In this document: in pieces, positions 15,763-37,696 of the stretch
Layout of the letters: each line of letters begins with the position of its first letter
Numbering within the stretch: position 1 is the first letter of the stretch
Assembly: GCA_963828465.1 (NCBI GenBank)
Contig: CAWHEU010000018.1
Location: 96,001-160,000 of the forward strand
DNA length: 64,000 nt
Reading direction: 5' to 3'
DNA from: an uncultured Acidobacteriota bacterium
Lineage (GTDB): Bacteria > Actinomycetota > Acidimicrobiia > Spongiisociales > ZC4RG35
Position numbers and translations under genes: made by a program
The notes under the pieces: generated by a model
Told to the model about the DNA's origin: nothing
Seen by the model: the letters and a program-made list of their open reading frames with translations, nothing else
Database searches by the model: none

Positions 15763-16317
15763 TTACCGGGTGAGAGGGAAGGTTTCAAGAGGCTCGTATC
15801 TGGCCCCACCCCGCCCGAGATGCGAGCGATAGACCACCACCGACCCGCATCGCCAACCGAGATCGGCACCGGGGAAGGAATCGAGGAGACCGCTCGCGTC
15901 CTCGGCCGGCCGCACCCGACTCAGGGTGAGGTGGGCCCGGAATGGTCGATCCTCCGCACCGAAGCCCGCGCTCTGTGCCGCCTCCTCGGCCGCGGCCGCC
16001 AGGTCCTCGAGCCGGGTCAGGCCTTTGGAGACCGCCAGCCAGATCACGGTGGCGCTCTTCGGCCGGGGGAAGGCTCCCATCCCGCCGAGCATCACATTGA
16101 ATGGGGGGCCTAGGTCCGCCCCGTCGAGCGCGGCCAGCATCCGGTCGTAGGCGACATCATCGGTCCACCCGAGGAAACGGAGCGTGATGTGCCAATGTTC
16201 AGGGGGCACCACTTTCCCGGGCATCTCGAGCGGTTCGAGCCGATCCGCCAGGGCCATCCGGACTTCGTCGGGCAGCGGCACCGCAACGAAGATGCGGGTG
16301 GCTACTCCTTCCACCAT
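15763..16317 (-). CDS. thpR: RNA 2',3'-cyclic phosphodiesterase (2H family)
   Basis: RIFVAV and two HxT motifs (WHITLRFLG, AHLTLSR); located between cinA and recA. Confidence 0.92.
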   Translation of the reverse strand: MVEGVATRIFVAVPLPDEVRMALADRLEPLEMPGKVVPPEHWHITLRFLGWTDDVAYDRMLAALDGADLGPPFNVMLGGMGAFPRPKSATVIWLAVSKGLTRLEDLAAAAEEAAQSAGFGAEDRPFRAHLTLSRVRPAEDASGLLDSFPGADLGWRCGSVVVYRSHLGRGGARYEPLETFPLTR

Positions 16318-17537
16318 TTGCCGATGAGGGCCAGCCGGGCGAGATGGAGTGCCGCAGCTGTGCCGTAGGTCCGCAGCCGCTCCCGGTCGCCACTGAATCT
16401 CAATTCCCGCACCCGGGTGTCGGCAGGGGTGGCGATACCGACGATCACGGTACCCACCGGCTTCTCAAGAGGCTCGGGACCGGCCGACCCGGTCACTGCG
16501 ATCGCGACGTCGACATCGAGCAACGCCCTCGCCCCTTGCGCCATGGCGAGAGCCGCGTCGCTGGTCACGACCTCGGTGACATCCGCCAATCCGAGCAGCC
16601 TCTGCTTCAACTCGGAGTCGTACGCGACGAGCCCTCCCTTGACCACGGCGGACGAGCCGGGGAGCTCGGTCAGTCGGGCGCTGACCATGCCGCCGGTCAT
16701 CGATTCTGCGGTCCCGATCGTGTATCCACGGTCCGAGAGCAGCCTCAGGAGAACCCGCTCGATGGTCTCGTCATCCAATCCGAAGACGGTCTCCCCCAGA
16801 CGGGAAACCACCTCGGCCTCCATCGGCTCGATGAGAAGCTGGGCCTCGGCCGCCGTGGCCGCCTTGGCCGTGACCCGAACCTTGATCTCCGAATTCGAGG
16901 CGAGGAAAGCCAGCGATGGGTTCACCGACGAGCTGTAGAGGTCGTCGAGGATCTCGGCAACCTCCGACTCGGGGCGACCCCAGGTGCGAATGACGCGACT
17001 CGCGATCACCTGCTGGTGTCCCGAGGCTGCCACCAGCCTCGGGACCACTTCGGTGAGCATCAAATGCTCCATTTCGGCGGGCACCCCGGGAACGCAAAAG
17101 ATCAGCTTGCCCTCGTGCTCGAGCATGAGACCGGGCGCCGTCCCGCGTGGATTGGGGATCATCTCCGCGCCTTCCGGGTAGTACGCCTGACGCAGGTTGC
17201 TCTGGGGCATCTCCCGTCCCCTTCTCGACCACCATTCCTTCAGCTGATCGGCGTAGTCCTCACTGAAGACAAGCTCCCGCCCGGTGACTTCGCAGACCGC
17301 CTCCCGGGTGATGTCGTCCTGAGTAGGCCCGATGCCACCCGTCATCACAACGGCATCCGACCTGTCGAGTGCGACCCTGATCGCCGAGGCGATGCGTGAC
17401 AGGTTGTCGCCGACCGTTTGCTGGTAATGGGCGTCGATGCCCTGCTCGGCGAGGGCGGCTCCCATAGTCGAGGTGTTGGAGTTGACGATCTGTCCGAGGA
17501 GGAGCTCGGTCCCCACTGCGATGACTTCGACGATCAT
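16302..17537 (-). CDS. cinA: competence/damage-inducible protein A (CinA, NMN deamidase fusion)
   Basis: EVIAVGTELLLGQIVNSN, GGIGPTQDDIT, PGVPAEM, AESMTGG; ATG overlaps the rimO stop. Confidence 0.93.
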   Translation of the reverse strand: MIVEVIAVGTELLLGQIVNSNTSTMGAALAEQGIDAHYQQTVGDNLSRIASAIRVALDRSDAVVMTGGIGPTQDDITREAVCEVTGRELVFSEDYADQLKEWWSRRGREMPQSNLRQAYYPEGAEMIPNPRGTAPGLMLEHEGKLIFCVPGVPAEMEHLMLTEVVPRLVAASGHQQVIASRVIRTWGRPESEVAEILDDLYSSSVNPSLAFLASNSEIKVRVTAKAATAAEAQLLIEPMEAEVVSRLGETVFGLDDETIERVLLRLLSDRGYTIGTAESMTGGMVSARLTELPGSSAVVKGGLVAYDSELKQRLLGLADVTEVVTSDAALAMAQGARALLDVDVAIAVTGSAGPEPLEKPVGTVIVGIATPADTRVRELRFSGDRERLRTYGTAAALHLARLALIGKWWKE

Positions 17538-18852
17538 CGACCGGGCACCAATACCGCCTCCATGTCGGGGCCGAAGACCCCCGTGTACTCGACGGTGACC
17601 CATTCCCCAACCCGACCGCCGTCGAGTCGGACGACCCCGTCGATCTCGGGAGCATGGCGGTGGGAGCGACCGATCGGGACCTCGTCTTCCACCTGGTCGA
17701 CGAGAAGTCGATCGACCCGGCCCAGCCATTCGGCGTGTCGGGATTCGGTGACTTCTTCCTGGATCGAGGTCAGATGACGGAGACGCTCCATCGTGATGTC
17801 GCGCGGAACCTGATCGTCCATCGCCGCCGCCGGGGTGCCCGGTTCGGCCGAGTATGGGAAGAACCCGGCCCAGTCGAGGCCGGTCTCGACGAGGAAATCG
17901 GAGAGACTCGTCGACCTCTTGGTCGGTCTCGCCGGGGAAGCCGACGATGAAAGACGATCTCAGGGCGGCATCCGGTTGGAGCTCACGGATCCGCCCCACG
18001 AGGGCGACGTGCTTGTCAAAGTTCCCGGGCCGCTTCATCCGACGGAGCAGGGGGCCGGAGACGTGCTGGAGGGAGAGGTCGAAATACGGCGCCACGACGT
18101 CGTTGGAGGTCATCTCGACGAGGAGACGCTCTCGTATCTCTCGGGGATGCAAGTAGAGCAATCGGAGGCGCGCCAGACCGGGGACGTCGGAGAGAAACAC
18201 CAAGAGCTCGGGTAGCCCGCCCGGTGCATCGATGTCCCGTCCGTAGGCCGCCAGGTCCTGGGCGACCAGCACGATCTCACTCGCACCTGCGGCCGTCAGC
18301 AACTCGAGCTCCTCCCGAATCTCGACCGGGCGCCGAGAGCGTTGCTTGCCCCGGATCGAGGGGATTGCGCAGAAGGTGCAGGGCTTGTCGCAACCCTCGG
18401 CGACCTTCAGGTAGGCATAGGGCAGGTCGGAGACAGGACGGCCGGTAGCGTGGAGGATGTCCATTACCGGACGCCGCCGCAGACCGACTCGGCTCCCAGC
18501 CCGTCAGCCCGTCGATCACACCGACCAACTCCCCGTAGCGGTCGATCCCGAGCACGGCATCGACCTCTGGGAGGGCGGCCTCGACCTCGGAGCCGAATCG
18601 CTGAGCCATGCACCCGATGACCACCGACCGGGCCTCGGGCCGCTTGCGGTCTTCCATCTCGAGGATCGCCTCGACGGACTCCGCTCTGGCCTCCTCTATG
18701 AATGCGCACGTGTTGACCATGACCACGTCGGCGTCCTCCGGTGCATCCGCCCAGCCGTAACCGGCCTCGGAGAGCATGGCGATGATCTTCTCCGAGTCGA
18801 CCTGGTTCTTGGCGCACCCGAGCGTGCTCAACCAAACCGTGGGAGCGGGCAT
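17534..18852 (-). CDS. rimO: ribosomal protein S12 methylthiotransferase (two apparent frameshifts)
   Basis: TLGCAKNQVDSE, NTCAFI, AYLKVAEGCDKPCTFCAIP, APEIDG spread over three frames; single extra bases near 18488 and 17907. Confidence 0.9.
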
Positions 18853-20883: not shown

Positions 20884-22173
20884 CTAGCTCGGCGTCGAGA
20901 ACTGGGCCTGCTCCGTCGAGCCTTCAAGTGCCAGTGTGGATGACTTGCCGCCGGCCACCACCTGGCTCACCAGGTCGAAGTAGCCGGCGCCCACCTCGCG
21001 CTGATGCCGGGTGGCCGTGTACCCGTCGCCTTCCATCGAGAATTCCCGGTTCTGGAGCTCGACATAGGCCGGCATCCCCTCCTCGGCATAGCCACGGGCC
21101 AATTCGAACATCGATGCGTTCAGGGCATGGAACCCGGCCAGGGTGATGAACTGGTAGCGATAACCCATCGTGCCCAACTCCTTCTGGAACCGGCCGATCG
21201 TCGCCTCGTCCAGGTGCTTGGACCAGTTGAACGATGGCGAGCAGTTGTAGGCCAGCATCTTGCCCGGGTACTCGGCATGGATCGCCTCGGCGAAGACCCT
21301 CGCCTCGTCGAGGTCCGGGCGGGCCGTTTCGCACCAGATCAGGTCTGAGTACGGCGCGTAGGACAGACCGCGGGCGATCGCCGATTCGAGACCGCCGGTG
21401 ACCATGTGGAACCCCTCCGGGGTGCGCTCGCCGGTCGCAAAAGCGCGATCTCGCTCGTCGATATCGGATGTGAGGAGGGTGGCGCCATTCGCATCGGTCC
21501 GGGCCACGATCAGGGTTGGCACATCCATCACGTCGGCGGCAAGACGCGCCGCCTGCAGCGTTCGAACGTGTTGCGCCGTCGGCACCAGGACCTTGCCCCC
21601 CATGTGACCGCACTTCTTCTCTGCCGCCAACTGGTCCTCGTAATGGATGCCGGCGGCGCCGGCCTGGATGAATCGCTTGGTGAGCTCGAAGACATTGAGC
21701 GAGCCGCCGAACCCGGCCTCGCCGTCGGCGATGATGGGAACGAACCAGTCGATGTCGGTCTTTCCCTCCGCCCAGTGGATCTGGTCGGCTCGGCGGAGTG
21801 CATTGTTGATCCGCTCCACCAGTGCCGGGGCGGAATTGGAGGGGTACAACGATTGATCGGGATAGACGTCGCCGGCCAGGTTCCCGTCCGCCGCCACCTG
21901 CCATCCGGAGAGGTAGATCGACTTCAGACCGGCCTTCACCATCTGCACCGCTTGTCCACCGCTGAGAGCTCCCAGTGCGCTGACGTAGTCCTCGGTGGTC
22001 AGACGCTCCCAGAGAGCGATGGCCATCCGATTCGCCAGCGTGGACTGCTCCCTTATGCTGCCCCGGAGCCTCACCACGTCTTCAGCGCTGTAGTCCCGGG
22101 TGACGCCCTCCCAGCGAGGGTTGGCCTTCCAGTCGTCGGCCAGACGGCTGGCCTCGTTGGCGACGTGCGACAT
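20884..22173 (-). CDS. aceA: isocitrate lyase
   Basis: KKCGHMGGK signature, [21 protein letters not shown]; ATG 22173 after GGGAGAG. Confidence 0.97.
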
Positions 22174-22184
22174 GTCTCTCTCCC

Positions 22185-23744
22185 TCAGTTGATCAACTCG
22201 TAGGCGGGCAATGTCAGGAACTCGACGAAGCTCTCCCCGAGGGCCACGTCTTCGAAGATTTTTTGGGCGACGGGCAGCCGATCCCCATACGGGTTGTCCT
22301 CCCCCTCCAAGCGATCGATCACAGACCCGGCTATCGAGCGCACCCGGGCCTCGGTGATGGGGGCGGCGTCTTCGGTTTCGACGCCGTGTCGCACCCACTG
22401 CCACACCTGCGATCTCGAGATCTCTGCCGTTGCGACGTCTTCCATGAGATTGTCGATTGCGGCGGCACCGGTCCCGGACAGCCACGAGGCGAGATAGCGG
22501 ATGCCCACCGAGACATTCGTCTCCAGGCCAGTGGTCGTCACAGATCCGGGGAACTCGAAGTCGAGCAGGTCGCCCGCCTCCACGGCAACATCGTCGCGCT
22601 GGCGGTCCAGCTGGTTCGGCCGTCCCCCGAGGACGTCGTCGAACTCTTTCATGGCCACAGGTACCAGATCGGGATGGGCCACCCAGGTGCCGTCACAACC
22701 CGCCCCCGCCTCCCGGGCCTTGTCGGCCCTCACGGCAGCGATCGCCTTCTCTGTGACCTCGGCATCGCGCCGATTGGGGATGAAGGCCGCCATGCCGCCG
22801 ATGGCATGCGCACCTCTCCGGTGACACGTCTTGACCATCAGCTCGGTGTAGGCACGCATGAACGGGACTGTCATCGTGACGGAGCCGCGATCGGGCAAGA
22901 TGAACGATGGGTCGTTCCGGAACTTCTTGATCACAGAGAAGATGTAGTCCCAGCGCCCGGCGTTGAGGCCGGCCGCATGCCGGCGCAGCTCGTACAGGAT
23001 CTCGTCCATCTCGAACGCGGCGAGGATCGTCTCGATCAGGACGGTGGCCTTGATGCTGCCCTGCGGGATACCGAGCCGATCCTGGGCCCAGACGAACACG
23101 TCATTCCAGAGTCTCGCCTCGAGATGAGACTCCAGCTTGGGCAGATAGAGATAGGGGCCGGTCCCGGCCTCGATCGCCGCTCGCCCACCATGGAAGAGAT
23201 AGAGGCCGAAGTCGAACAACGAACCGGACATGGGACGCCCGTCGACCAGGAAATGCTTTTCGCCGAGATGCCAGCCACGCGGTCGAACCACCAGGGTCGC
23301 CGTCTTGCTGTCGAGCTCGTAAGTCTTCTCTCCGGTGTCGAGTCTCAACTCGCGCCGATAGGCGTCGACCAGATTGGCCTGGCCTTCGAGGAGGTTGAGC
23401 CAGGTCGGAGAGGTCGCATCCTCGAAGTCGGCCATGAAGACCCGGGCGCCCGAGTTGAGCGCGTTGATCATCATCTTGGCGTCGACCGGGCCGGTGATCT
23501 CGACGCGGCGGTCGGTCAGGTCGGCGGGCACCGGGTCGATCACCCAGTCCGACTCCCTGACATGCCGGGTCTCGCTGAGAAAGGCAGGTTGCTCCCCATC
23601 ATCGAGCCGGCCCTGCCGGGTCTGTCGCTCGGCGAGGAGCTGGCCCCGCTGCCAGCCGAACTCCTGTTCCAGATCGGTGAGAAACGCGACCGCTTCCGGG
23701 TCGAGGACCCGGCGCTCGATCTCGGTATCTCGAAACTGATTCAT
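22185..23744 (-). CDS. aceB: malate synthase A
   Basis: [48 protein letters not shown]. Confidence 0.97.
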
Positions 23745-25278: not shown

Positions 25279-26760
25279 TCAGCTCGAGGTGTCCTCGATG
25301 AATCCTCTCAGGTGGCCGGCCAGGGCATTCAGCGACTGACGCTGCAGGTACATCATGTGGCCCGCCTCGTAGTACTCGGTCCGGATGTTTTTCCGCAATG
25401 ACTCGTCGAGACCGAGATGGCTGATCGTGTAGTCGGTTGCGAAATGGGGCGTGGCCAGGTCGTAGTACCCGCTGGCCACGAACACTTGCAACCGCTGGGA
25501 TCGGGACATGACATCCCGAAGCTGTTCCGAGGTGTCGACGTAGTGACCCTTGAACTCTTCGTAGTCCCAGGACTCGTTCACCTTCATGCTCAGGGTCTCG
25601 TAGAAGGATTCGTTCTCGAATCCGAGCTCCACCCGCAGGTAGTCGTTCAGCGTCGCCGTGAAAGGCCCGCCGATCTGATCGGAGGCCGGGTCGTTCTCCA
25701 GATTGTCTCCAGCCGCTATCCGGTCGATCCCCGTGAAGCGAGAATCGAGCCGGCCGACGGTTCTTCGCTGGTCTCGCATCAGCTCCTTGCAGAAGCGTTG
25801 GATGTGGATCCGGAGGTTGTATCGATCGATGTAGTCGGCGGAGATCCCGGTGTATGCCGCCAGCTTGGCCATCACTCGTTTTCGTTCGGTGTCTTCGAGC
25901 GCATCGCCGCGGGCCAGGGCTGACCAGTAGGGGCCGATGGTGAACTCCTCCACCTCGTCGAGGAGGTCGCGGAGGTCACGGCGCTGGAGCTTGGATGAGA
26001 GCCGGCCGTGGAACCAGGCAGTGGCGGCGTAGGTGGGCAGGAAGACCATGAAAGGAAGGTCGTTTCCCGGCCGGAAGACGAGCGCATCAGGCTCCTGGCC
26101 GATCGTCTGGAAGTTGAGGGCCGACGAGATGAGGATCAGCCCGTTTAGCTCAGTTCCCTTGTGGGCGAAGAGACTGTGGGCGATCGCCGCCCCTCTGGTA
26201 GTCCCGTAGCTCTCCCCGGCCACATACTTCGGGGAGGCCCACCTCCCATTCCGGTTCAGGTAGGAAACGATGAAGTCGGTGAAGGCGCCGATGTCCTTGG
26301 AGAAGTGGTGGAACTCTTTCTCCTTGTCCTTGGGGGTTGCCGTGGAGAAGCCGGTGCCGATGGCGTCGACGAGGACCACATCCGCCACATCGAGTATCGA
26401 TTGATCGTTGTGGATCAGTCGGCCGGGCACCGAGACCTTGAAGCCGCTCTCGTCGAATTCCACCCGTCGCGGCCCGAGCAGCCCGAGATGGAGCCAGACA
26501 GTGGACGATCCCGGTCCTCCGTTGAAGGCGAACACGATCGGCCGGGATGCCGGGTCGGCTCCGTCCTCGGTGTATGCGACGTGGAAGAAGACCGCCTTCT
26601 TGTCGTCCTCCTGCTCGACGATCTGGGTGGCGGCGGTCGCGGTGTAGGACACCTTGCGGCGGCCAAACTTGCCGGTGTACTGCTTGGAGACGCTTTTCTC
26701 TTCGACCTCGGGAAGGGGTGGCGTGTCCTCTTGGACCTGATTGGTCTGCTCTTCTGCCAT
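25279..26760 (-). CDS. serine carboxypeptidase, family S10
   Basis: FNGGPGSS, GESYG nucleophile motif, GYYDLATP, YEAGHMMY. Confidence 0.93.
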   Translation of the reverse strand: MAEEQTNQVQEDTPPLPEVEEKSVSKQYTGKFGRRKVSYTATAATQIVEQEDDKKAVFFHVAYTEDGADPASRPIVFAFNGGPGSSTVWLHLGLLGPRRVEFDESGFKVSVPGRLIHNDQSILDVADVVLVDAIGTGFSTATPKDKEKEFHHFSKDIGAFTDFIVSYLNRNGRWASPKYVAGESYGTTRGAAIAHSLFAHKGTELNGLILISSALNFQTIGQEPDALVFRPGNDLPFMVFLPTYAATAWFHGRLSSKLQRRDLRDLLDEVEEFTIGPYWSALARGDALEDTERKRVMAKLAAYTGISADYIDRYNLRIHIQRFCKELMRDQRRTVGRLDSRFTGIDRIAAGDNLENDPASDQIGGPFTATLNDYLRVELGFENESFYETLSMKVNESWDYEEFKGHYVDTSEQLRDVMSRSQRLQVFVASGYYDLATPHFATDYTISHLGLDESLRKNIRTEYYEAGHMMYLQRQSLNALAGHLRGFIEDTSS

Positions 26761-26769
26761 GACTCGAAT

Positions 26770-27336
26770 CTAGGGCGTCTTCTCCCGCCCGTCGCGGTCG
26801 ATCCAATCCTCCGGTCCCACTCCGAGGCCCTCGGCGATGCGGTTGATGTAGTTGAAATAGGCGACGACCTGAACACAACTGGAGATCGCCCTGTCGTCGT
26901 AGCCATGCTGCCTCAGCTGGGCGACATCCTCCGCGCTGACCGAGGCGCAATCGTCTGTGAGGCGCTCGGCGAACAAGAGCAGGGCCATCGTGGCATCGTC
27001 GAGGCCGGCGCTCCGCCAATCCTCGGCGAACCGGTCCACCATCTGTTGATCGTCGACCTCATCCCGGAGGTCGTGTAGATGCGCCGCTATTCAGTAGTGG
27101 CACTCGTTCACGTCTGATGTGACTACAGCGATCATCTCCCGCTGGGACCGGGTGAGGGGTGAATCGCCGAACATGATCGTGGAATAGAGGCGCATCGAGT
27201 CCCGCATCACCTCGGGAAGCTGGCTCTGGATCGAGACGATGTTCCAGATCCGACCGGCCCTTCGGGTGGCGGCGTCGTACTCCTTCCTGGTGACACCGGC
27301 CGCCTCGTCGGCGGGTGTCACGTGAACGTGGGGCAT
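26770..27336 (-). CDS. AhpD/carboxymuconolactone-decarboxylase-family peroxidase-related protein, probable selenoprotein (CxxU)
   Basis: ORFs 27091..27336 and 26770..27042 share a frame and are separated only by TGA 27091-27093: REMIAVVTSDVNECHY-U-IAAH...YFNYINRIAEGLGV. Confidence 0.88.
27054..27073 (-). promoter_or_regulatory. candidate bacterial SECIS hairpin
   Basis: CGACCUC-CGGGAU-GAGGUCG beginning 17 nt 3' of the in-frame UGA. Confidence 0.65.
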
Positions 27337-27339
27337 GGC

Positions 27340-28596
27340 TCAACCGGCGAGAAACAGCGCCGGTTCCTCCAGATTCTCGATCACCAGGGCCATGAAGCGC
27401 CGACCCTGGGCGCCGTCGATGACCCTGTGGTCGTAGGACAGCGACAACGGCATGACGGGGGCAATCGCCAAATCCCCGTTGCTCACCACGACCTTCTCCT
27501 GGGCGCGGCCCACCGAGAGGATCGCCGTCGTGCCGTAGGGAACGATCGGAGTCCCCTGACCGCCACCCACGGCCCCGATGTTGGAGACCGTGAACGTCTG
27601 GCCGGTCAGCTCGTCGGGGGCGAGTGACCGTTCCCGTGCACCTTCTCCTAGACGCCGGACCTCGGAGGCAATGTCGAGGACCGCGAGGGCCGCGGCGTCG
27701 CGCACTACTGCCACAAGAAGCCCATCGGGTGTGTCGACCGCGATCCCTATGTGATGGGCGCCATGGACGATCAGGTCGTCGCCGTCGAGGGTGGCGTTGA
27801 AGTCGGGAAAGGCCTCGAGGGCCGGTATGACTGCCTTGATGACGAGCGCCTCCATCGGGAGCTTCACCTCGTGACGTGCGCTGAGGGCGGATCGGATCTC
27901 CACGAGCCTCGTCGCATCCACCTCGTCGAAGGTGGTGACATGGGGTATCTCGGCCCAGCTCCTCGCCATGTTGGAGGCAATGGTTCGGCGCAACCGGGAC
28001 AAAGGGCGACGCTCGTCCTCACCGGAATCCTCCAAAGGCGACGCGGTCACTTCCTGCGGCCTCGATTCTTCGGTGGGCGCCACCGACTCGGTTGCCGATG
28101 GAGCGGCCGCCAGCACGTCCTCCCGGGTGACTCTGCCCTCGGGGCCGGACCCGCGCACCTGTCCGAGATCCACCCCCATTTCCCTGGCCAGCTTGCGCAC
28201 AATGGGAAGCGCCTTGACTTCCTTGGTCCCTTCCCCTCCTGCGGTCGGGCCGACCGGGGAGAGCACTTCTGCTTCCTCGCTGAGGGTGCCGACGATGGGC
28301 GGCGCCGTGTGGGTCGCTTCTGGCTCGGATACGGAGTCGTCGGAGGTGGCGACCTCCCCGTCCTCACCGATGACGACAAGCACCGATCCGACCTGAATCG
28401 TCTCCCCCTCGACCCCACCGTGTCGAAGGACTGTGCCGGCATACGGAGAGGGAATCTCGACCACGGCCTTGTCGGTCTCGACCTCGACCACGGGTTGGTC
28501 GGCTTCGACACGCCCCCCCTCGGGGACGAGCCACCGCACGATCTCTGCCTCGGTGAGGCCCTCACCGATGTCAGGCAGGAGGAATTCCCTCGCCAC
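27340..28596 (-). CDS. 2-oxoacid dehydrogenase E2 (dihydrolipoamide acyltransferase)
   Basis: Lipoyl domain VETDKA, E3-binding GSGPEGRVTREDV, catalytic DHRVIDG. Confidence 0.95.
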   Translation of the reverse strand: MAREFLLPDIGEGLTEAEIVRWLVPEGGRVEADQPVVEVETDKAVVEIPSPYAGTVLRHGGVEGETIQVGSVLVVIGEDGEVATSDDSVSEPEATHTAPPIVGTLSEEAEVLSPVGPTAGGEGTKEVKALPIVRKLAREMGVDLGQVRGSGPEGRVTREDVLAAAPSATESVAPTEESRPQEVTASPLEDSGEDERRPLSRLRRTIASNMARSWAEIPHVTTFDEVDATRLVEIRSALSARHEVKLPMEALVIKAVIPALEAFPDFNATLDGDDLIVHGAHHIGIAVDTPDGLLVAVVRDAAALAVLDIASEVRRLGEGARERSLAPDELTGQTFTVSNIGAVGGGQGTPIVPYGTTAILSVGRAQEKVVVSNGDLAIAPVMPLSLSYDHRVIDGAQGRRFMALVIENLEEPALFLAG

Positions 28597-29573
28597 TAGG
28601 CCTCCAGTGTCTCTTGTGCCACCCGCACGATCCGGTCCACAGTCGGAAGGTAATGGCCCTCGGATCGCTTCAGCGGGAAGACGGTGTCCCAGCCCGTCAC
28701 TCGACGCACCGGCGCCGTGAGCGAGTAGAGGGCGCGCTCCTGGACGATTGCGGCCACTTCCGCCCCCATGCCTGCGGTCCGGGGGGCTTCATGGACCACA
28801 ACCACCCTCCCCGTCTTGGTCGCCGAGCGGGCAATGCCATCGGCGTCGATCGGAGAGAGGGTGCGCAGGTCGAGTACCTCCACTGATATCCCGGACTCTT
28901 CGAGACGGGCCGCTGCCGCCCGCGCCTCCTTCATCATCGCCCCCCAGGACACCACAGTGATGTCCTCGCCTTCGCGCTCGACCCGCAGCGGGCCGATCTC
29001 TGTGGTGTAGTACAACTCGGGGACCTCTTCCTTGACCGCCCGGTAGAGGCGGATCGGCTCCAGGAAGAGCACCGGGTCGGGGTCTTCGATGGCGGCCAGG
29101 AGCAAACCTCGAGCGTCGGAAGGAGTCGACGGGACCACCACCTTGAGACCCGGGATGTGGGCGTATATCGCCTCCGTCGACTCGGAATGATGCTCGGCGG
29201 CTCCGATGCCGCCACCGAAGGGGACTCGTATCACCACCGGTGCGGTGAAACGGTGGTTGGAGCGGTTCCGGATACGTGCGACGTGGTTGATGATCTGGTC
29301 GTATGCCGGATACGAGAAACCGAGGAACTGGAGCTCGGCCACAGGACGCATCCCGGCGATGGCCATCCCGAATGCCGCGCCCACTATCCCGGACTCCGCC
29401 ACCGGGGTGTCGAACACCCGGTCCTCCCCGTACTTGTCCCGCAATCCGTCGGTGATCCTGAACACTCCCCCGGTCCGACCGATGTCCTCGCCGAGCAGCA
29501 CCACACGCTCATCGGATTCGAGCGCAGTCGCCAGCGCTCCGTTGAGGGACTGGGCCAAGGTCAGCTCGCTCAA
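28596..29573 (-). CDS. pdhB: 2-oxoacid (pyruvate/branched-chain) dehydrogenase E1 beta
   Basis: GEDIG..GGVFR.T, DTPVAESGI, EHHSES. Confidence 0.93.
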   Translation of the reverse strand: MSELTLAQSLNGALATALESDERVVLLGEDIGRTGGVFRITDGLRDKYGEDRVFDTPVAESGIVGAAFGMAIAGMRPVAELQFLGFSYPAYDQIINHVARIRNRSNHRFTAPVVIRVPFGGGIGAAEHHSESTEAIYAHIPGLKVVVPSTPSDARGLLLAAIEDPDPVLFLEPIRLYRAVKEEVPELYYTTEIGPLRVEREGEDITVVSWGAMMKEARAAAARLEESGISVEVLDLRTLSPIDADGIARSATKTGRVVVVHEAPRTAGMGAEVAAIVQERALYSLTAPVRRVTGWDTVFPLKRSEGHYLPTVDRIVRVAQETLEA

Positions 29574-30610
29574 GAGCCGATCTCACCCAGCTGAGTTTCG
29601 ATAGGCGACGTCGGCTGCTCGTACATGCGCAGCAACATCTCCTCGGCGGTCGGCTGGGGCAGCGCCTCCGCCATCGCCACCGCCTCCTCGATCACGTCCG
29701 ATGCTCGGGTCTCGAGTTCTTCCTGCCATTCGGGGGTCCAGCCGCCGGCCCTCTCGAGGAGGAGACGCACCCGCTCGAGGGGATCCTTCTCACGCCACTC
29801 CACGGCCTCGTCCTCGTCGCGGTAGCGGCTCGGATCGTCGGAAGTTGTGTGAGGGCCGAGTCGGTAGGTCACCGCTTCGATGAGGGTCGGCCCCTCACCG
29901 TTTCGCGCCCTGGTGACCGCCCCACTCACGACCTCGAACACCGCGGCGACGTCGTTGCCGTCGACGAGGACGCCAGGCATGCCATATCCCTCCGCCTTCA
30001 TGGCGATCGACTCGGAACGGGTCTGCTCGGCTCGGGGGTAGGAGATGGCGAAGCCGTTGTTCTGGCAGAGGAAGACGGTCGGCGTGCTGAAGACGGCAGC
30101 GAAATTCATCGCCTCGTGGAAATCGCCTTCGGATGTGGCGCCGTCCCCGAACGAGGTCAGTGCAATGCGGTCAGAGCCCCTGAGCGCCTCGGCCCAGGCG
30201 AGCCCTACGGCATGGATCATGTGACCGCCGACGGTTATCGAAGGCGGAAGCACGTTGACCCCATCGGGGGCCTGCCCGCCCCGCTCGTCGCCGGTCCGTC
30301 CCGCCACGAGGAGGCTCCACGGATACCCGGCACGCCACATGAGTGCTGCATCCCGATAGGTGGCCGCTACCCAGTCGTCGGGTCGTAGAGCCGCTGCCGC
30401 CCCGATCTGGGCCGCTTCCTGGCCCTCGAAGGGGGCATAGGTGGCCAGCCGGCCCTGTCGCTGCATGGCCATGCATTTGTGGTCATAGGTGCGGGCCTCG
30501 ACCATGTCGGAATACAGCCGGCGCATCTCCTCGAGGGTGATGGGGAGACGATCGCCAACGGTCCCGTCCGGGCTGATCAGGGTGAGCATGCCGGCGGAGA
30601 GCTTATCCAC
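29570..30610 (-). CDS. pdhA: 2-oxoacid (pyruvate/branched-chain) dehydrogenase E1 alpha
   Basis: GQEAAQ, TPP motif GDGATSEG...NN, HTTSDDPSRYR. Confidence 0.93.
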   Translation of the reverse strand: MDKLSAGMLTLISPDGTVGDRLPITLEEMRRLYSDMVEARTYDHKCMAMQRQGRLATYAPFEGQEAAQIGAAAALRPDDWVAATYRDAALMWRAGYPWSLLVAGRTGDERGGQAPDGVNVLPPSITVGGHMIHAVGLAWAEALRGSDRIALTSFGDGATSEGDFHEAMNFAAVFSTPTVFLCQNNGFAISYPRAEQTRSESIAMKAEGYGMPGVLVDGNDVAAVFEVVSGAVTRARNGEGPTLIEAVTYRLGPHTTSDDPSRYRDEDEAVEWREKDPLERVRLLLERAGGWTPEWQEELETRASDVIEEAVAMAEALPQPTAEEMLLRMYEQPTSPIETQLGEIGS

Positions 30611-37111: not shown

Positions 37112-37696
37112 ATGTCTGCTACCTCAACGATGCTCCCGCTCGGAACAAAGGCGCCCGACTTCACCCTGCGAGATGTCGTCTCGGAACGAGACGTCTCTCT
37201 TGGCGATTTCGACGGCTCGAAGGGCATGCTCGTCATGTTCATCTGCAATCACTGCCCCTATGTCCAGCACGTCCGCGACGAGCTGGCGCGCTTCGGGATG
37301 GACTACCAGGACTCCGATCTCGGGATCGTGGCGATATCCGCCAACGACGCCGACCAGTATCCGGACGACGGCCCCGATGCGATGAGGAAGGAAGCCGTTC
37401 GCTATGGCTACACCTTCCCCTACCTGTTCGATGCCGACCAGAGCGTGGCTGCCGCCTACACGGCCATGTGCACGCCCGACTTCTTCCTGTTCGATTCGAA
37501 TCGAGAGTTGGCATATCGAGGCCGTTTCGACGAATCGAGGCCAAACAGCGGGATCGCGGTCACCGGCGCCGACCTACGCGCAGCCGTCAACGCAGTCCTG
37601 TCCGGGCAGCCGGCAAGTTCCGAGCAATTGCCCTCGATGGGCTGCTCGATCAAGTGGAAGCCAGGCAACACCCCAGCCTATGTCGGGGCGGCTTGA
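37112..37696 (+). CDS. thioredoxin-like (AhpC/TSA) family protein
   Basis: APDFTL, FICNHCPYV, CTPDFF, SMGCSIKW. Confidence 0.9.
   Translation: MSATSTMLPLGTKAPDFTLRDVVSERDVSLGDFDGSKGMLVMFICNHCPYVQHVRDELARFGMDYQDSDLGIVAISANDADQYPDDGPDAMRKEAVRYGYTFPYLFDADQSVAAAYTAMCTPDFFLFDSNRELAYRGRFDESRPNSGIAVTGADLRAAVNAVLSGQPASSEQLPSMGCSIKWKPGNTPAYVGAA

Follow-up and report, generated by a model that had tools for sequence, protein, structure and literature searches.

Introduction

AhpD-like selenoproteins, in which selenocysteine (Sec, U) is carried in a CxxU motif, have been catalogued since 2005. From the Sargasso Sea, 27 sequences of such proteins (COG2128) have been reported (PMC1088965). In the GOS data the 'AhpD-like 1' group, which comprised 299 selenoproteins next to 902 Cys homologues, was one of the commonest families of selenoproteins (PMC2398784). 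The entry 'AhpD-like protein, TIGR01926, CxxU' stands in the table of a 2026 review (PMC13188914) and the AhpD-like selenoprotein family is also present in BSepDB (PMC13326102). Regarding the phylum, Actinobacteria were counted among the selenoprotein-rich phyla in an early survey (PMC1794560), and a 2026 preprint has described Sec machinery across Actinomarina (Acidimicrobiia) without mention of AhpD (10.64898/2026.04.03.716425). For the mycobacterial AhpD, the reductant is a lipoamide-bearing protein together with NADH, and the enzyme passes electrons to AhpC or acts directly on peroxides (PMC8945050). In the limited literature collection that we searched, no paper combining selenoprotein, AhpD and lipoyl was found.

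In the present study, one gene of this type has been analysed in a window of 64,000 nucleotides (G000:C18:96001-160000) from the genome of an uncultured bacterium, which is a MAG of 3.07 Mb in 29 contigs with 92% completeness. The initial annotation had placed an AhpD-like selenoprotein at 26770..27336 and had left the strand unstated; our analysis supports the selenoprotein and places its gene on the minus strand. The stretch 27336..26770 (minus strand) is very probably an intact AhpD-like selenoprotein gene, in which UGA-82 would be read as Sec by SelB and tRNA-Sec by means of a downstream hairpin. This reading is supported by the membership in TIGR01926, the Sec machinery of the genome, the conserved UGA with a likewise conserved frame behind it, the selection on the hairpin and the existence of Sec/Cys orthologue pairs.

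The gene does not differ in kind from the known AhpD-like CxxU family, as it scores above the cut-off of the same HMM family, has its UGA at the second position of CxxC, possesses Cys homologues and a stem-loop just past the UGA, and lies in a genome with the Sec genes; this branch of the family comes from uncultured, mostly soil Acidimicrobiia. The initial annotation had already regarded AhpD-like selenoproteins as known, and since they are indeed catalogued, our result is a correct re-annotation and no new mechanism. One point is possibly new: a single family of Acidimicrobiia has the gene directly behind E1alpha, E1beta and E2, as the fourth member of that block, which hints at a lipoyl-dependent recycling.

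Reading frame, redox motif and fold

Under translation table 11 the region has two ORFs on the minus strand, one at 27336..27091 (81 aa, ending in NECHY) and the other at 27042..26770 (90 aa). When TGA is translated as U, both become part of a single frame of 188 codons, just as the initial annotation had proposed. This frame, 27336..26770 (minus strand), starts with the ATG at 27336 and gives 188 residues followed by a TAG stop. The sole U of the frame is residue 82, encoded by the TGA at 27093..27091 (minus strand), and its surroundings read VVTSDVNE-C-H-Y-U-I-A-A-H-LHDLRDEV. The earlier placement of this TGA (NECHYUIAAH) at the second cysteine of the redox motif was right, whereas the 'CxxC-xx-H' spacing given with it was not, the actual arrangement being C-x-x-U-x-x-x-H. 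The complete signature of the product is E67-x11-C79-x2-U82-x3-H86, where E67 lies 12 residues N-terminal to C79.

The read-through product scored 141.7 bits against the NCBIfam model TIGR01926 ('peroxidase-related enzyme', cut-off 81.8), residues 3-176 of the product being matched to positions 2-176 of the 178-position model, and 40.9 bits against Pfam CMD. It stays below the cut-offs of the canonical AhpD model TIGR00777 (23.1 bits vs the cut-off of 191.95) and of NF041238 (AhpD_rel_CFYUT (seleno)protein; 53.4 bits vs the cut-off of 175), where it covers just the C-terminal part of a 357-position model. The nearest solved structures by sequence are 2oyo, 2pfx, 3c1l and 6k40 (E-values 3e-25 to 2.3e-22, nearly full length), and C79/U82 are paired with the CxxC of 2oyo and 2pfx in the two alignments displayed. 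Through these matches the product has been assigned a predicted AhpD/CMD fold. The solved homologues, 2oyo and 2pfx ('uncharacterized peroxidase-related protein'), 3c1l (Mlr4105) and 6k40 ('alkyl hydroperoxide reductase AhpD'), are Cys proteins with largely uncharacterised functions, whereas the present product would carry Sec. In comparison to the mycobacterial AhpD, the CMD fold and the E-x11-C-x2-C/U-x3-H signature are shared; the differences are the score below the TIGR00777 cut-off, the lack of an adjacent ahpC and the Sec in place of the second Cys.

From these features the product may be described as a 188-residue thiol-selenol oxidoreductase of the AhpD/CMD fold, whose putative redox centre is C79-x-x-U82 with H86 and E67. 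SelB and tRNA-Sec would decode UGA-82, guided by the hairpin 17 nt downstream, and would thereby presumably insert selenium. C79 and U82 would then cycle between the selenolate/thiol and the selenenylsulfide states, as the CxxC of AhpD-type enzymes does, and the chemistry is probably a reduction of peroxides or of a peroxiredoxin-type partner.

Sec machinery and genetic code of the source genome

A search for selA, selB, selC and selD had been suggested as a check on the reading, and all four were found in the source genome. The selA match has 436.1 bits, selB lies directly behind it (300.6 bits, with one apparent frameshift in the assembly), selD has 389.9 bits, and the tRNA-Sec has 72.3 bits with the anticodon TCA in ARAGORN. 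A second selenoprotein gene was also identified, which encodes an FdhA-type molybdopterin oxidoreductase with the motif NRTUHAPSVAG (G000:C16:7045-8298; L113, UGA at 1717) and has a 6-bp hairpin with the loop GGUCU 15 nt past its UGA. A near-identical but frameshifted second copy of this fdhA is present on another contig (G000:C26:2016-3268; L115), suggesting an assembly duplicate or contamination.

The frameshift of selB raises the alternative that the source genome no longer decodes the gene. In that case selB would truly have lost its C-terminal domain, UGA-82 would terminate translation, and the locus would yield an 81-residue fragment, perhaps along with a 90-residue product from the ATG at 27042. 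The selB of this genome does match the SelB of a relative in two frames, with residues 1-472 in one and 469-582 in the other (contig C9, around 52817; L002:2912-2916), so that the last ~110 residues, which we take to be the SECIS-binding end, are in another frame. However, selA, selD, tRNA-Sec, the UGA-containing FdhA gene and the AhpD-like gene are otherwise intact, and the latter is 96% identical to its same-genus orthologues without further damage. Eight other genomes of this genus have an uninterrupted selB, which matches model positions 2-580 in a single frame. Since split selA or selB genes are also found in other assemblies of the genus (G006, G012), and since the near-copy of fdhA is frameshifted as well, we regard an indel of the assembly as more likely than a true lesion of selB, and a loss of decoding in the source genome as improbable.

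We consider it still less probable that the UGA is read through by a route other than Sec, such as a near-cognate Trp or Cys tRNA or a reassigned code. This possibility is suggested by public protein records: among the database homologues (24 of 118 hits aligned, 21 full-length and 3 fragments), 13 of the 21 full-length sequences have W at the Sec column. The peptide context of these W forms, however, occurs in genomes which have TGA at this codon, and W is therefore most likely the translation of a gene caller under another genetic code. Moreover, among the 49 tRNAs found in the source genome, both tRNA-Trp genes have the anticodon CCA and UCA is found in tRNA-Sec only. Elsewhere in this genome TGA is a stop: it terminates the E2 gene 2 residues past the end of the catalytic Pfam domain, and it ends 1848 of the 2583 ORFs of at least 300 codons, a set which includes spurious frames. 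A Sec system is likewise consistent with the conservation of the hairpin and with the joint occurrence of the gene and selA.

The three aligned fragments begin two residues past the Sec column, and many C-terminal pieces of ~104 residues are present in the public sets. Such W forms and fragments occur among the records P0003, P0004 and P0016-P0054; they probably represent a TGA that was translated under another code, or genes truncated at the TGA. The gene clearly illustrates the way in which selenoprotein genes are damaged by standard gene calling, either by division into fragments of ~104 residues or by writing W for Sec.

A genome-wide scan for TGA read-through with a hexamer coding model was also carried out, and it gave 699 candidates, which were mostly neighbouring genes sharing a frame by chance; the scan was not discriminating and was replaced by searches with individual families.

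Conservation of the UGA codon in relatives

In a set of 61 genomes, the source genome included, one in-frame TGA was found at all 29 orthologous places (61-99% identity), where it is always the U of C-x-Y-U. The frame past the TGA is open for 105-115 codons in 28 of the 29 and ends after 90 codons in L048, at the end of its contig. selA is present in 55 of the 61 genomes and in 28 of the 29 which have the TGA orthologue, the exception being G023 (76% complete), and the orthologue is absent from 5 of the 6 genomes without selA. These counts, like that of the same-genus selB genes, include five genomes flagged as unpublished (G018, G027, G028, G039 and G050), among which only G018 has an orthologue (L041). 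When the five are removed, the figures become 28/28 for TGA and 51/56 for selA, and no conclusion hinges on them.

A scan of species-representative genomes gave 58 loci with TGA at the codon in 58/58, 54 being recognised by pattern and 4 by inspection; the record titles are nearly all Acidimicrobiia/Actinomycetota MAGs, with some 'Acidobacteriota' and one 'Boseongicola'. In a sample of the class, 77 of 301 Acidimicrobiia genomes have an orthologue (E-value 1e-40 or better), with one TGA in 74 of them, two in 1 and none in 2. The codon itself was inspected in 26 new loci of this sample and was found to be TGA in 24 and TGC in 2. The ~1-Mb genomes of family f16 have the TGA form in 52 of 65 (44-52% identity). 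Sec use is thus common and not rare in Acidimicrobiia; the expectation of the initial annotation that it is sparse in Actinobacteria does not hold for this lineage, with selA in 55/61 relatives and the TGA form in 75/77 of the orthologue genomes.

A reading of TGC or TGT at 27091-27093 had been named as evidence against the selenoprotein. The TGA codon is spanned by an independent soil DNA contig (X1) and by a 150-nt RNA-library contig (X15, which extends just 30 nt past the TGA on one side); both carry TGA and every listed difference lies elsewhere. Contig X16 ends at 27073, short of the TGA, and contig X7, which covers the TGA, was not counted because 3 of its 9 differences are unlisted. The RNA-library contigs are no evidence of transcription. 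From the two ORFs of the gene callers and the many C-terminal pieces in public sets, it might be supposed that a Cys-type AhpD-like gene has acquired its TGA by a nonsense mutation or through a sequencing error, and is a pseudogene or an artefact. This is hardly credible against the same TGA in 29/29 and 58/58 loci down to 61% identity, its presence also in loci of ~1-Mb genomes at 49-51% identity, the open and conserved downstream frame and the independent DNA contig.

Further proteins of this kind were observed in the relatives. A second, more distant AhpD/CMD clade of the same order likewise has an in-frame TGA, as seen at about a dozen places (36-42% identity) and in the 40%-identical paralogue L049 (G060:C88:33809-34339), where the motif is CxxU. 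A search of the source genome with PF02627 found no TGA-containing paralogue there. G047 (98% complete) gave no selA match and nevertheless contains a paralogue of 39% identity that is interrupted by one in-frame TGA.

Cysteine forms of the gene

An alignment of homologues had also been proposed as a check on Cys/TGA pairing, and pairing of Cys with Sec was seen at this column in database proteins, in the PDB homologues and in two orthologous loci. Among the database proteins, Cys forms are found in P0002 (CRYC, 71% identity), in P0103 (CAYC) and in six TxxC forms. The two loci are L124 and L130 of genus g37 in the family that we designate f1, where the E1beta-E2-X-S10 order is kept, the Sec codon is TGC and the motif is N-S-T-R-Y-C; the first Cys is here replaced by Thr (from C-x-x-U to T-x-x-C).

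The hairpin is broken in both. Their 30-nt windows fold with -6.1 and -4.2 kcal/mol in different pairs, while the TGA rows (n=109) have a mean of -11.0 kcal/mol in a distribution that overlaps with the TGC values. In a tree rooted on the sequences of the ~1-Mb genomes, L124 and L130 form one clade (SH-aLRT 100) on a branch of length 0.89, and this clade is nested among the TGA forms; the enclosing branches have values of 90 and 82 and are not starred. The tree fits a replacement of Sec by Cys with moderate support, and the T-x-x-C motif along with the long branch suggests that the mechanism changed after the loss of Sec. The two loci would thus represent a natural Sec-to-Cys replacement accompanied by decay of the SECIS hairpin.

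SECIS-like hairpin

The initial annotation had described a 7-bp hairpin with a G-rich loop 17 nt after the UGA, and stem and loop were found as described. The SECIS-like element occupies 27054..27073 (minus strand), with the stem CGACCUC (27073..27067) and GAGGUCG (27060..27054) enclosing the loop CGGGAU (27066..27061), whose start is 24 nt past the UGA. In bacterial SECIS elements the apical loop follows the UGA at a distance of 16-37 nt and has a G near its start, and elements of the fdhF type are read by SelB. Like the fdhF-type elements and the fdhA element of the same genome, the present hairpin is a stem-loop soon after the UGA whose apical loop contains G residues; similarity in sequence to them is limited to the loop. 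An Rfam search of window positions 26600-27500 gave no match at E-values up to 1.

The hairpin by itself is not beyond chance. For the single-sequence fold of 67 nt the z-score is -0.69, and equal or better folding was seen in 46 of 200 shuffles. It is the comparison with orthologues, in which the TGA, the downstream frame and the hairpin are all kept, that raises it beyond chance. For the comparison, 64 distinct 75-nt sequences were obtained from 86 rows, L107 being too short. Standard pairs were found in 447 of the 448 stem cells, and the remaining cell is a C-A mismatch. One stem pair varies as C-G in 56 sequences, U-A in 6 and U-G in 2, where the U-A version requires a change from Val to Ile; another is G-U once, 4 of the 7 pairs are invariant, and covariation is seen in 1 of the 7 only. 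The observed covariation score was reached by 0 of 500 column shuffles, and pairing fell to 17-51% when the 3' partner was shifted by 1-3 columns. RNAalifold returned exactly the same 7 pairs and no others.

The synonymous sites of the stem are more telling than the covariation. For a six-fold Leu of the stem, CTC is the only codon used in 62 distinct coding sequences (entropy 0), and the lowest entropy among 23 other conserved six-fold columns is 0.58. A four-fold Val codon in the stem has an entropy of 0.13 against a minimum of 0.68 for 21 others. Jointly, the five stem codons lie below random sets of conserved columns in a permutation test (p ~9e-5). On these comparisons, the hairpin is under selection at the nucleotide (RNA) level. 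The element also takes other forms in the orthologues: those with Ser at codon +10 have a longer stem and a GGUC tetraloop, and those of the ~1-Mb genomes, although low in G+C and only ~50% identical as proteins, keep this GGUC loop on a 5-bp stem of the CUCC(A/U) type.

Gene neighbourhood and a possible electron donor

The selenoprotein gene lies in a run of five nearly abutting genes on the minus strand. The E1 alpha subunit, of pyruvate dehydrogenase type, is encoded at 29570..30610 (TIGR03181, 425.9 bits vs the cut-off of 411.35) and the E1 beta subunit of a 2-oxoacid dehydrogenase at 28596..29573 (Pfam Transket_pyr and Transketolase_C; NF006667 with 298.9 bits, below the cut-off of 321). 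These are followed by the E2 dihydrolipoyl acyltransferase at 27340..28596 (Pfam Biotin_lipoyl, E3_binding and 2-oxoacid_dh; lipoyl-lysine motif ETDKA). The 'pyruvate' assignment comes from E1 alpha alone, because the matches of E1 beta and E2 lie below the equivalog cut-offs. The TGA stop of E2 is 3 nt ahead of the selenoprotein ATG, and a serine carboxypeptidase-like gene of the S10 type (25279..26760, Pfam Peptidase_S10), which is the last gene of the conserved block, begins 9 nt past the selenoprotein stop.

Of 28 loci that could be assessed among the relatives, 23 have E2 directly upstream, and the other 5, which belong to other families, are without E2. In the MAG loci, E2 stands directly upstream in 49 of 56, and in 5 more its end lies ~1 kb upstream; the remaining loci are L106, which is frameshifted with E2 adjacent, and L104, which is without E2. 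The E2 proteins of these loci range down to 59-60% identity, and S10 is directly downstream of the selenoprotein gene in 48 of 53 loci. In the class sample, family f1 has E2 adjacent at 11 of 13 loci and 0.3-1 kb upstream at the other 2, whereas 0 of the 13 loci of other families have E2 nearby. The linkage to E2 is therefore confined to one family of Acidimicrobiia (f1). No neighbour was shared by the orthologues outside f1 among 23 flanking ORFs, many of which are without a Pfam match and some of which are probably spurious.

The gene for the dihydrolipoyl dehydrogenase (Lpd, 457.8 bits) is located elsewhere in the source genome. No ahpC is found beside the selenoprotein gene; the genome has six PF00578 (AhpC-TSA) matches, none of them adjacent, and the nearest lies at window positions 37142-37516, ~10 kb away.

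The conserved place behind a lipoylated E2 suggests a candidate electron donor for this family of selenoproteins. We tentatively propose that, in f1, the Sec AhpD-like protein is the product of a co-transcribed fourth gene of a pdhA-pdhB-E2 block, and that its oxidised centre might be re-reduced by the lipoyl arm of the upstream-encoded E2 together with Lpd and NADH. The lipoyl arm is a plausible donor because, within one family, numerous genera have the gene packed behind the lipoylated E2. The proposal nevertheless remains doubtful, since the linkage is restricted to this lineage and the binding is putative. With the mycobacterial system, in which AhpD is linked to a lipoamide-bearing protein, the present gene shares a link of this kind through its genomic position beside a lipoylated E2. 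If true, the lipoyl donor would make this a relay like the lipoamide-dependent one of mycobacterial AhpD, but based on selenium, and it would tie peroxide defence, or the protection of lipoyl groups, to pyruvate oxidation.

Two other features of the window were observed in passing. An ORF of 720 residues at 16302-18464 (minus strand) combines an N-terminal radical SAM domain with MoCF_biosynth, CinA_KH and CinA domains, and we know of no other fusion of radical SAM to CinA. The genes of isocitrate lyase and malate synthase, the enzymes of the glyoxylate shunt, follow the dehydrogenase block at a distance of a few genes downstream, at 20884-23744 (minus strand).
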